Assembly (NCBI GenBank): GCA_964016885.1
Contig: OZ024740.1
Coordinates: forward strand, 221,402,001-221,466,000
Origin: Eledone cirrhosa
Lineage: Eukaryota
Length of the DNA stretch: 64,000 bases
Direction of reading: 5' to 3'
Made by a program: the position numbers and the translations under genes. Numbering within the stretch: the first letter of the stretch is position 1; each line of letters starts with the position of its first letter. Positions 2,131 through 56,385 of the stretch are shown here, piece after piece. The notes beneath the pieces were generated by a model. It was not told where the DNA came from and did no database searches. It saw only the letters and a program-made list of their open reading frames with translations.

Positions 2131-3824
2131 GGATGTATATATAATGTATTTTGCAATACACTTTATGCTTAATTAAAAGCATTTTGAAGACCGTAATCTA
2201 TTGTTTTAAAGTAGTGACAAATTCACTCACTTTGATCTCAGCAAACAGGGGAGATAAGCCGACAAGTCTTGTTTCGCTTTGGTTGAAGCTTATCAAGGCC
2301 AACAACCACTCTGCATAATCAGCTCCTGATTATTTACTAGATTTCTATAAGAATATAACATCAATGATCTCAGTAAACAGGTGGGGTAGTTGGCCTTAAT
2401 AAGCTTCAACCAAAGCGAAACAAGACTTGTCGGCTTATCTCCCCTGTTTGCTGAGATCAAAGTGAGTGAATTTGTCACCACTTTAAAACAATAGCTTACG
2501 GTCTTCAAAATGCTTTTAATTAAGCATAAAGTGTATTGCAAAATACATTATATATACATCCATATATATATTGCTATTTCAGAGCTCCAATTCTAATTTT
2601 TAATTTCTGCCTGACCAACAACCGCTCTGCATAATCAGCTCCTGATTATTTACTAGATTTCTATAAGAATATAACATCAATGATCTCAGTAAACAGGTGG
2701 GGTAGTTGGCCTTAATAAGCTTCAACCAAAGCGAAACAAGACTTGTCGGCTTATCTCCCCTGTTTGCTGAGATCAAAGTGAGTGAATTTGTCACTACTTT
2801 AAAACAATAGCTTACGGTCTTCAAAATGCTTTTAATTAAGCATAAAGTGTATTGCAAAATACATTATATATACATCCATATATATATTGCTATTTCAGAG
2901 TTCCAATTCTAATTTTTAATTTCTGCCTGACCAACAACCGCTCTGCATAATCAGCTCCTGATTATTTACTAGATTTCTATAAGAATATAACATCAATGAT
3001 CTCAGTAAACAGGCCTTGATAAGCTTCAACCAAAGCGAAACAAGACTTGTCGGCTTATCTCCCCTGTTTGCTGAGATCAAAGTGAGTGAATTTGTCACTA
3101 CTTTAAAACAATAGCTTACGGTCTTCAAAATGCTTTTAATTAAGCATAAAGTGTATTGCAAAATACATTATATATACATCCATATATATATTGCTATTTC
3201 AGAGCTCCAATTCTAATTTTTAATTTCTGCCTGACCAACAACCGCTCTGCATAATCAGCTCCTGATTATTTACTAGATTTCTATAAGAATATAACATCAA
3301 TGATCTCAGTAAACAGGCCTTGATAAGCTTCAACCAAAGCGAAACAAGACTTGTCGGCTTATCTCCCCTGTTTGCTGAGATCAAAGTGAGTGAATTTGTC
3401 ACTACTTTAAAACAATAGCTTACGGTCTTCAAAATGCTTTTAATTAAGCATAAAGTGTATTGCAAAATACATTATATATACATCCATATATATATTGCTA
3501 TTTCAGAGCTCCAATTCTAATTTTTAATTTCTGCCTGACCAACAACCGCTCTGCATAATCAGCTCCTGATTATTTACTAGATTTCTATAAGAATATAACA
3601 TCAATGATCTCAGTAAACAGGCCTTGATAAGCTTCAACCAAAGCGAAACAAGACTTGTCGGCTTATCTCCCCTGTTTGCTGAGATCAAAGTGAGTGAATT
3701 TGTCACTACTTTAAAACAATAGCTTACGGTCTTCAAAATGCTATTAATTAAGCATAAAGTGTATTGCAAAATACATTATATATACATCCATATATATATT
3801 GCTATTTCAGAGCTCCAATTCTAA
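2131..3824 (+). mobile_element. Retrozyme-like / PLE pseudo-LTR tandem array: five 304-316 bp monomers, each with a type I HHR motif, preceded by an inverted partial copy (2131-2300)
   Basis: HHR motifs at 2393, 2709, 3013, 3317 and 3621 (periods 316, 304, 304, 304); inverted arm carries the motif on the minus strand (2258-2299); flanked by (TA)n. Confidence 0.85.
3013..3054 (+). ncRNA. Type I hammerhead ribozyme, U3-A8 core variant (identical at 3317-3358, 3621-3662 and minus 2258-2299)
   Basis: GCC-TTGATAA-GCTT(CAACCA)AAGC-GAA-ACAAG(A)CTTGT-C-GGC: stems I, II and III all pair; GUC cleavage triplet. Confidence 0.8.
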
Positions 3825-3904
3825 TATATATATTGAAGAGTTATACAATTTATTTTATTAATATTTATATTCTAATATATATATATATATATATATATAT
3901 ATAT

Positions 3905-4283
3905 GGGTGTGTCTGATGTTAGGTAAGATGCTTCCATAGGCGGTATGCTGATTGAGCACTCTATGCTCTTACAGAGCAGAGTATGATACATCTGATGCAT
4001 CTGAACTCAATTTACTGTCTGTTACATTTGTTTCCCCGGCGGACAGCTCGAGACGCGATCATTGTGTGGATCTGTCTGATTCTGGACCCGCAGGTTCGCC
4101 GGACACGTCTAATGATTTCGGAGTGAGAGAATATGCTCCGAAATCATTAGATGTGTCCGTCGAACCTGCGGGTCCAGAATCAGACAGAACCACACAATGA
4201 TCGCGTCTCGAGATGTCCGCCGGGGAAACAATTGTAACACACAATAAATTGAGTTCAGATACATTACTGATTTTTCGTTTTCT
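3905..4283. mobile_element. Fold-back cassette family B (PLE pLTR-like) with candidate branched HHR
   Basis: Inverted arms about 3993-4122 / 4135-4263; homologous to 51684-52030 and to a fragment at 8625-8720. Confidence 0.7.
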
Positions 4284-5094
4284 AACTAACGTTACATAGA
4301 TCGATAACGAAATATGCGTACGATGTATCACCTAGAAACGATCGTAAAGCAGTGAAGTATATTTCTAATAACTTGAATTTTTATTCATTGTTTTAACTTA
4401 TATCATGACTCTGTTTTCCTTTTGATGTTTTATTGTTTTCCGGGATTTATTTTAACCTACAGCATATGGATTACATTGAGTTCTTCATGCAGACTAGACC
4501 CCACAACTAACCGTGGATATTTCTGTATATATATATATATATATATATATATATATATATATATATATATATATATATACATATCTACATACATATATGT
4601 ATATATATATATATATACATATATATATATATATATATATATATATATATATATATATATATATATATATATATATATATATATATATATATATATAATA
4701 ATAATAATCTTTTATTTTAATAAATATATATATATAATAAATGTAATCTGAGTTTTTCGAATATTAATAATAATATTCGATTCGTTTGCAATTATGCAAA
4801 CAACCTCTTTTTAAAGCCATGTCAGTAGAATTAGCCCCTCATTCTTGCTCTTGTGTTGGCATGTAAACAGAACTGCAGACACTAATGCTTCTGGGTATCA
4901 AACTTTATCTGTACAGTTCACTGTTCACCTGCCAACTATCAGAGCTAGAGAAAATATAATATATTTTCTAAAATTTACAGTCACTAATCAGCCTGATTTG
5001 CATATTAGCAGACTGGCTGATCCTTCAGATCTGCACACACACACACACACACACACACATATATATATATATATATATATATATATATATATAC

Positions 5095-54796: not shown

Positions 54797-55055
54797 TAAT
54801 AAATGTACTAAACTAAAATTCGATCGTTTTAACAGTTTTATCTCGGCTCTGTAAAACACTTGAAAATTTGCATTGAGCCTTTTGTCATACCGGTAACCGG
54901 CTAGTACTTAGTACTACCCTACATATTTATAGTTATATCAAACATATATAAATATAAATATAAATATTACAATATATATATATATATATATATATTATAT
55001 ATATATATATTGTAATATTTATATAAGTGGTTACACAACAGTTAGTTCACCATAC

Positions 55056-55093
55056 CGAGAACAATTGTTTCACCTTAGCGGATCCTCAGCTCG
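55056..55093 (-). ncRNA. Minimal type I HHR
   Basis: CGAG-CTGAGGA-TCC(GCTAA)GGT-GAA-ACAATTGT-T-CTCG in a TA-flanked cassette. Confidence 0.65.
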
Positions 55094-55364
55094 TAATGGA
55101 CATCCTAACTCGTCCCATAGACTGAGTGCTCTACCACTACGGATATTACCTTCCAGTGTTCTACCATATATATATATATATATGATTCTTACTCTCTCTC
55201 TCTATATATATATATGACTCTCTCTCTCTCTCTCTCTCTCTCTCTCTCTCTCTCTCTCTCTCTCTCTCTCTCTCTTTCTCTCTCTCTCTCTCTCTCTCTC
55301 TCTCTCTCTCTCTCTCTCTATATATATATATATATATATATATATATATATATATATATATATA

Positions 55365-56385
55365 TACGATTAGCAGCTTATAGCAGCAACATATAGTTTA
55401 TCACTCCGATCGCAGGAAGAGCGATAAAACCTGTTGATAAACTGAATCCTACGTTCGATCACCAATACCAGAAGCTTACCTTTCAAGTAAGTCTGATATT
55501 TGATTTCGGATTCAAAGAAACACTTTAAACGATTGTTCGTTTAATTTGTCCAGGTGTACTTTTCTCAACCTGATTAGTTCTATCGTTGCTTTGGTATATA
55601 TTGTGTGTTAGTTTGGCCTACCACAATGTTCGATTTGTCAAGCTATTTAAACGTATGTTATTACTCTAAAGACCTACCTTATCGAGTGCTTTGCTAACTC
55701 ATCACTTCATATGAGTAGGCCGAATTCACTTGCAAACCGCCAGAGATTCGATTTTACTGATCTCCAATTATATTATTCTCCTAGATTTAATAATTAACTA
55801 ATTAATTTAATTAGACAATTCTGTTGATTGGTTAATTATTAGTGTTTGTTTTATAACATCTAGTCGAAAGCTTATCATGATGATTAGCGGAAATTTAAAA
55901 TATTTCCTTTTTCGCTAACATTTTGAATAACCGCCTGGGACCGGGGTTTATTTCTCTTGCCGGAATTAGCACGTGATAATTATAGATACGATTAGCAGCT
56001 TATAGCAGCAACATATAATTTATCACTCCGATCCCAGGAAGAGAGATAAAACCTGTTGATAAACTGAATCCTACGTTCGATCACCAATACCAGAAGCTTG
56101 CCTTTCACGTAAGTCTGATATTTGATTTTGGATTCAAAGAAACACTTTGAACGACTGTTCATTGTCCAGGTGTAATTTTCTCAGCCGGATTAGTTCTATC
56201 GTTGCTTTGGTATATATTGTGTGTTAGTTTGGCCTACCACAATGTTCGATTTGTCAAGCTATTTAAACGTATGTTATTACTCTAAGGCCCTACCTTATCG
56301 AGTGCTTTGCTAACTCATCACTTCATATAAGTAGGCCCAATTCACTTGCAAACCGCCAGAGATTCGATTTTACTGATTTCCAATT
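55365..56385 (+). mobile_element. Tandem pLTR/retrozyme-like repeat (period about 622 bp) with long-stem U3-A8 HHR at 55429-55555 and 56051-56171
   Basis: ACCTG-TTGATAA-AC-TGAATCC(long hairpin)GGATTCA-AA-GAA-ACA(hairpin)TGT-C-CAGGT in both copies; (TA)n flanks. Confidence 0.7.

Follow-up and report, generated by a model that had tools for sequence, protein, structure and literature searches.

The genome of Eledone cirrhosa contains a real and well-supported lineage of type I hammerhead motifs, predicted from their sequences to be ribozymes, in which the pair between positions 3 and 8 of the core is U3-A8 instead of the textbook C3-G8. We found these motifs in a stretch of 64,000 nucleotides (contig OZ024740.1, positions 221,402,001 to 221,466,000; hereafter the window), in two insertions that we call family A and subfamily B. 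U3-A8 is an inherited trait of this A/B lineage. We think it likely that A/B is a single lineage with a fixed U3-A8 core, carried by a 316-bp non-coding repeat that is probably copied by Penelope-like elements (PLEs) and that probably cuts its tandem transcripts as a dimer. The U3-A8 variant has already been published, and A/B is a further case of it; a preliminary description of the window, which proposed compensatory double changes in three families, fails as stated. The fresher leads are two other lineages in this genome, with U3-G8 (family C) and A13C (family F).

A lineage of U3-A8 hammerheads

The preliminary description placed its motifs correctly, giving the edges of each motif and not the start of its core. 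In family A, TTGATAA cores begin at 2296 (minus strand), 3016, 3320, and 3624, with the stems GCC/GGC (stem I), GCTT/AAGC (stem II), and ACAAG/CTTGT (stem III). In the group with GTAC/GTAC, the core at 41570 (minus strand) pairs in all three stems, but the copy at 41706 reads TCCGT, which leaves an A-C mismatch in stem III. These two groups had been counted as separate families. However, the insertion at 41413-41862 is 73-82% identical to the one at 2144-3825, so they are homologous and form one lineage. The motifs at 55429 and 56051 (family C) are indeed unrelated to it, with no detectable DNA similarity beyond the motif.

The family A unit is 316 bp, or 304 bp where 12 nucleotides were deleted. 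Those 12 nucleotides of the 5' strand of stem I are present in genomic copies and are gone from the copies with cores at 3016, 3320, and 3624. The copies with a full stem I (cores at 2396 and 2712) carry G5A, which puts them outside the type I core consensus. Thus, every unit of the window's array lacks either an intact core or a complete stem I.

We then searched the whole genome (3.0 Gb and rich in microsatellites). Proportions from these pattern searches are hand counts over the first 100 matches listed. The family A pattern, with positions 3 and 8 left free, had 1,815 exact matches, and the reversed pattern had none, which excludes a chance origin for family A. Among the first 100 matches, 96 were U3-A8, 3 were G3-A8, and 1 was A3-A8. 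A generic pattern with a stem-loop II of equal size found 1,503 further U3-A8 matches (control, 40), along with 23 U3-G8 (control, 4), 28 C3-A8 (control, 1), and 15 C3-G8 matches (control, 1). The A/B lineage has more than 3,200 genomic matches in total, with under 1% single-mismatch cores (U3-G8 or C3-A8). Most of these mismatched copies are members of the lineage and are spread across its subfamilies, as expected from decay after insertion.

From sampled loci, we extracted 90 distinct copies of the A/B lineage, and we aligned 25 that were picked to span the subfamilies. (One subfamily, E, was included by its motif and weak flank similarity only.) Five of the aligned copies have a single mismatch at position 3 or 8, and four of these five came from the mismatch searches. 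The lineage has the type I consensus (Y3-U4-G5-A6-N7-R8-A9, G12-A13-A14, A15.1-U16.1, H17, and a Watson-Crick 3-8 pair). All 25 copies share U4-G5-A6, A9, G10.1-C11.1, A13-A14, A15.1-U16.1, and C17, and N7 varies. A-like DNA with the identical 316-nt tandem joint is also present in contigs from three other organisms. Two contigs from one of these organisms span the core, with no listed change at position 3 or 8.

The hammerhead structure accounts for these copies well: 93.2% of the cells are paired, versus 35-50% in slid controls, and not one of 500 shuffles equaled its covariation score or its share of paired cells. (The pair count was matched by 8 of the 500 shuffles, and the number of further pair types by 494.) Two-sided changes occur in 14 of 28 pairs, including 3 of 4 in stem I, 3 of 4 in stem II, and 2 of 5 in stem III. 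Stem II alone comes as GCTT/AAGC, GTAC/GTAC, GCAC/GTGC, GCAT/ATGC, GGGG/CCCC, and GGAG/CTCC.

As had been anticipated, standard searches miss these motifs. An Rfam scan of the window gave no family at the gathering score. For the A/B lineage in particular, the hammerhead models had no match at the gathering score and none among the 150 of 186 e-value matches that were listed, which are dominated by microsatellites matching miRNA models. Our own descriptor scan left positions 3 and 8 free, and it recovered the motif at 41706 only with relaxed stems.

Probable dimers and proposed mobilization

Stem III is palindromic in every subfamily (ACAAGWCTTGT, ACAAGGCCTTGT, ACAGAGCTCTGT, ACAGCGCTGT, and ACAATTGT). 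In A, B, and B', it is computed to form a self-duplex at -9 to -20 kcal/mol, and as a hairpin it has little or no stability. A palindromic stem III is the feature that enables the hammerheads of Penelope elements and retrozymes to act as dimers (PMC4209133, PMC6765202). If the tandem units are transcribed, then these palindromes would bring two hammerheads together, and the dimer would cleave after the GUC and trim the tandem transcripts, perhaps into circles. Penelope-like retrotransposon enzymes would mobilize the repeat in trans.

The insertions themselves point to the same kind of enzyme. A/B insertions are tandem and 5'-truncated, and they are frequently joined to an inverted arm. Among 34 distinct 3' ends (loci L001-L060), the distance beyond the GUC is 138-141 nt for 13 and 162-177 nt for 17, with two preferred ends at about 140 and 166 nt; none of the 34 is at the cut site. 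Nearly all 3' ends of family A lead into (TA)n. Similarly, an anole PLE has two starts for reverse transcription (a "tail") and AT-rich targets (PMC11167929), and PLEs have inverted 5'-truncated arms and a tail (PMC8557442). Family A combines 5' truncation, an inverted arm, 3' ends about 30 nt apart, and AT-rich targets, so we infer that it is non-autonomous and that a Penelope-type protein copies it in trans. It also has the hallmarks of a retrozyme without long terminal repeats (a non-LTR retrozyme): short non-coding tandem units at dispersed loci, with a single type I hammerhead per unit.

The window does contain fragments of open reading frames (ORFs) that we take, from their motifs, to encode a Penelope-type GIY-YIG-like endonuclease (40278-41141, minus strand, and 43702-44055, plus strand). 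Pfam gave no match to either fragment. Copies that we presume to be of this GIY-YIG-like type have 150 scored matches in the genome, and the 40278-41141 fragment has many copies at 89-95% identity. At one locus (L104), subfamily B seemed to be tied to an adjacent PLE; a microsatellite lies between them, and we rejected this link.

Several observations weigh against this account of A/B. First, its cleavage is likely but is predicted from sequence and fold, and when a type III hammerhead was scanned pairwise, the core was rescued by a G3-C8 swap alone (PMC9901934), so the activity of U3-A8 would depend on context. Second, covariation among the aligned genomic copies, a kind of check that had been suggested beforehand, bears out stems I to III but not the 3-8 pair: no two-sided change at that pair is seen in the 25 aligned copies. 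Also, because of the kinship among subfamilies, the 25 copies represent perhaps 5-7 independent events of covariation, and the figures above are inflated. Third, monomers are predicted to fold 3-6 kcal/mol below the hammerhead fold, with the core strand (2.2 to G5) paired to stem III (15.2-15.6). In the alignment, 92.7% of the cells of this alternative helix are paired, and one pair changes on both sides. An off state in monomers is a weak hint from these models because folding programs leave non-canonical core contacts unscored. Fourth, we found no autonomous partner: the GIY-YIG element of the window, inspected at 30 loci, has no hammerhead core in the 900 nt that follow it, and nothing contiguous links such an element to these families (one element family at 30 loci, plus other sampled loci). 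Finally, relatives whose cores look defective (families C and F) have spread as well.

Table 1. Insertions and hammerhead motifs in the window, by family (window coordinates).
Feature	Position	Strand	Description
Family A insertion	2144..3825		Inverted arm 2144-about 2307 (-) and plus-strand tandem array, between (TA)n tracts
Family A hammerhead	2257..2300	-	U3-A8 core intact (2296-2290); cut predicted after 2261; truncated arm without distal stem I
Family A hammerhead	2392..2435	+	G5A core TTAATAA at 2396; complete stem I; new relative to the preliminary description
Family A hammerhead	2708..2751	+	G5A core TTAATAA at 2712; complete stem I; new relative to the preliminary description
Family A hammerhead	3012..3055	+	U3-A8 core at 3016; cut predicted after 3051; 12 nt of stem I deleted immediately upstream
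Family A hammerhead	3316..3359	+	U3-A8 core at 3320; like the 3012 copy, with 12-nt deletion
Family A hammerhead	3620..3663	+	U3-A8 core at 3624; like the 3012 copy, with 12-nt deletion
Subfamily B insertion	41413..41862		Two inverted arms; 73-82% identity with family A
Subfamily B hammerhead	41530..41574	-	U3-A8 core at 41570; three stems paired
Subfamily B hammerhead	41702..41746	+	U3-A8 core at 41706; stem III with an A-C mismatch
Family C partial tandem	55367..56389	+	Period of 622 bp; truncated at the 5' end; 3' end fixed at 223 nt past the GUC
Family C hammerhead-like motif	55429..55555	+	Core at 55434; stem II with a long insert and with A10.1 and A11.1 unpaired; last base of the GUC at 55550
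Family C, copy 2	56051..56171	+	Core at 56056; extension of stem III shortened by a 6-nt deletion
Family D hammerhead-like motif	9002..9050	-	TTGAAAA at 9044; A17; ACCGGT palindrome; stem I interrupted beyond 2 pairs
Family F minimal hammerhead-like motif, young subfamily	50254..50290	+	U3-A8; A13C; A17; 3-bp A-U stem I
Family F, copy 2	48713..48749	-	Core at 48746; inverted partner of 50257; new relative to the preliminary description

Families C, D, and F

Three other families of Penelope-type repeats have U3 cores that are further from the consensus, and they are less likely to be efficient ribozymes. The first, family C, does have the reported TTGATAA cores (55434 and 56056), but the first two positions of its stem II are unpaired (A-A and C-A). 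Its pattern, with positions 3 and 8 free, has 602 genomic matches (control, 1). The preliminary description had held that independent variation of positions 3 and 8 would refute its proposal. Family C shows just this: all of the first 100 matches listed have U3 while position 8 varies (G8 in 52 and A8 in 48); the window copies are U3-A8.

To see how G8 and A8 are distributed, we built a tree from 68 family C copies (from 70 loci: the first 30 and 40 that were picked). The G8 label requires 6 changes on this tree versus 22.7 if shuffled. G8 occupies the lower rungs of a ladder, and nearly every copy in the clade closest to the window copies has A8. However, A8 also occurs in four distant copies that are weakly placed, so the direction of the change is unsure. 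Nearest-neighbor identity is 0.96 for the A8 copies and 0.93 for the G8 copies. In 49 of the 68 copies, the GUC is followed by the stem I strand, both left free in the pattern, so the motif is conserved. In 65 of the 68, A10.1 (fixed by the pattern) stands opposite A11.1, and the pair that closes stem II is absent. Because natural hammerheads can carry a U-U mismatch at the base of stem II (PMC3088659, PMC7229834), family C stays a candidate hammerhead, albeit an atypical one.

Family C also has intron-like signals (plus strand, 55487-55553 and 56109-56169). A donor-like GTAAGT (in 49 of 68 copies) and an acceptor-like site, the pyrimidine-rich TTGTCCAG, enclose 67 nt that hold the GAAA and the predicted cut site. 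Putative splicing would excise the second half of the ribozyme. In the Penelope element of Drosophila virilis, the end of an intron overlaps helix I (PMC4209133).

Family F is the largest, with 25,156 genomic matches (control, 0). (A relaxed descriptor census of an evenly spaced sample passes only one copy of it.) All of the first 100 matches listed are U3-A8, with A13 in 58, C13 in 41, and G13 in 1. Copies of the older form are typical minimal hammerheads, in which stem I is CCTT/AAGG or ACTT/AAGG and G12-A13-A14 is intact. The C13 form is young: its copies are 99-100% identical and A13C is fixed, yet stems I and II still show two-sided changes. The window copies, which read GCA in place of G12-A13-A14, lie on inverted arms (48592-49066 and 49937-50411) that are 99.6% identical and 870 bp apart.

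In family D, 23 of 38 distinct copies have TTGAAAA. The family has a 5-bp stem II, ACCGGT, and A17, and it lacks a continuous stem I (1-2 core-adjacent pairs and then a mismatch).

The motifs at 9002 (family D) and 50257 (family F) had been proposed as maintained variants with TTGAAAA. The heptamers are present, at 9044 (minus strand) and 50257 (plus strand), but the motif at 9002 has a broken stem I (at most two core-adjacent pairs) with A17, and the one at 50257 has A13C (GCAA instead of GAAA). In both families, A17 may form a pair with U3; its analog in natural C3 ribozymes, G17, makes them 8- to 100-fold slower (PMC3884650). Overall, the proposal of variant hammerheads kept in several lineages is supported for the anatomy of A/B, given its stem covariation and the rarity of single-mismatch cores, but not for families C, D, and F.

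Alternative explanations

The first alternative is that the fold is conserved while cutting is dispensable or negligible. The motif would then be a passenger or a structure that is recognized by a Penelope protein, and U3-A8 would reflect relaxed catalysis. We consider this unlikely. In its favor, family F has expanded with C13 in near-identical copies, family C has expanded with U3-G8 and A10.1-A11.1, and the cut site never coincides with the ends of the insertions. Also, insertion by an anole PLE in vitro did not require hammerhead cleavage (PMC11167929), and Naiad PLEs flourish without canonical hammerheads (PMC8557442). On the other hand, the catalytic letters and C17 are fixed in A, B, and E even though N7, the loops, and the stems change, and the mismatched cores are scattered singletons.

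A second alternative is the one offered by the preliminary description: that U3-A8 replaced C3-G8 separately in several lineages, each time through a compensatory double change, and that all of these lineages are still active. A/B, C, D, and F have no detectable DNA similarity outside the motif, so multiple origins are possible, and the other hammerheads of the genome are mostly C3-G8 (11 of 13 strict matches in 380 kb). Nevertheless, no C3-G8 sister was seen for any of these families, and compensation can be argued only by comparison to the textbook core. For A/B, none of the 15 C3-G8 matches is a sister (all flanks were inspected, and one family by BLAST, with the pattern fixed to a 14-nt stem-loop II); all 15 lack the long stem I. 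Furthermore, family C varies at position 8 alone, and families D and F fail in stem I or at A13, with an A17 that may pair with U3 in the way presumed for G17 and C3 (by analogy to PMC3884650). This explanation is improbable.

Finally, chance look-alikes within AT-rich satellites or hairpin repeats are a very remote explanation, for although TTGAWAA by itself is uninformative (60 occurrences in the window) and the motif at 50257 folds no better than shuffles (z = -1.1), reversed-pattern controls gave 0-40 matches versus thousands, 3.8 Mb of shuffled DNA gave 3 descriptor matches (none U3-A8 or C3-G8), and all three stems of A/B covary; this refutes it for A/B and leaves it possible in part for D.

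Other repeats in the window

Eleven of the 15 C3-G8 matches (L061-L075) form a small family with a good stem II and flanks without stem I pairing. The window also has minimal C3-G8 hammerheads of other families, several of them in inverted pairs, at 5194 (-), 6296 (+), 44871 (+), 57720 (-), and 57863 (+). At 53542 (+) is a C3-A8 single mutant of a minimal hammerhead. A broken ORF of a non-LTR retrotransposon (17791-20753, plus strand) has a weak match to RVT_1, and its C-terminal region presumably corresponds to a restriction-like endonuclease, which it resembles. A dispersed repeat of about 190 bp that is similar to short interspersed elements (77-92% identity) occurs at 877-1081, 16265-16485, 21235-21663, 22975-23161, 24206-24406, 26891-27252, 54201-54389, and 60761-61882.

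Implications

The function of hammerheads in Penelope-type elements has been called unclear (PMC8557442). With matched high-copy lineages of U3-A8, U3-G8, and U3-A8/A13C in one genome, E. cirrhosa is a natural experiment, and it makes a question testable: must hammerheads cleave for Penelope-type elements to spread? The genome also holds at least 28,000 motifs that can escape a survey based on Rfam models or CUGANGA descriptors.

A bolder idea, which we put forward tentatively and think is probably wrong, is that these natural hammerheads work even though they depart from the core rules published so far. Family C would have spread through many successive master copies with U3-G8 and a conserved A10.1-A11.1 before U3-A8 became fixed, as a stepping stone from C-G to U-A. 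Family F would have amplified as an active form to roughly ten thousand copies with U3-A8 and A13C, its stems I and II being kept by two-sided changes. In A/B, U3 would permit an off switch in monomers, formed by the core and stem III and released in dimers.

Comparison with known systems

The first natural U3-A8 covariation was reported by Perreault et al. 2011, who called its activity in vitro proven (PMC3088659). Those natural hammerheads resemble ours in having U3-A8 and, in some, a stem II that opens with a mismatch (U10.1-U11.1). Unlike in our families, U3-G8 lineages, A10.1-A11.1, and A13C are not mentioned in the available part of that paper. In the open literature, with supplements and two key papers outside our scope, we found no description of natural U3-G8 or A13C hammerhead lineages.

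Schistosoma Penelope elements have about 1,300 U3-A8 motifs (Cervera and de la Pena 2014, PMC4209133). The hammerheads of the Cercyon PLE from Schistosoma mansoni are, like A/B, of type I, with U3-A8 and a palindromic stem III that is suited to dimers. They also have copies in opposite orientation 100-700 bp apart and are missed by a C3-G8 descriptor. A/B differs in its 4-bp stem II with no extra base after A9, in its long stem I with an internal loop, in its stem III of 10-12 nt, and in its location in short non-coding tandem units, not beside an ORF. Family F is nearer than A/B to the minimal form of Cercyon.

A/B, which we know here from DNA alone, differs from the animal non-LTR retrozymes (PMC7229834; 10.64898/2026.07.22.740005) in its U3-A8 core and in its ends, which are like Penelope-type tails instead of lying at the cut site. 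Otherwise the two are alike: each is a short tandem unit of low GC content with one type I hammerhead, dispersed over thousands of loci, and each has a proposed derivation from Penelope elements. For the animal retrozymes, an origin from PLEs has been argued by Li et al. 2026 (10.64898/2026.07.22.740005).

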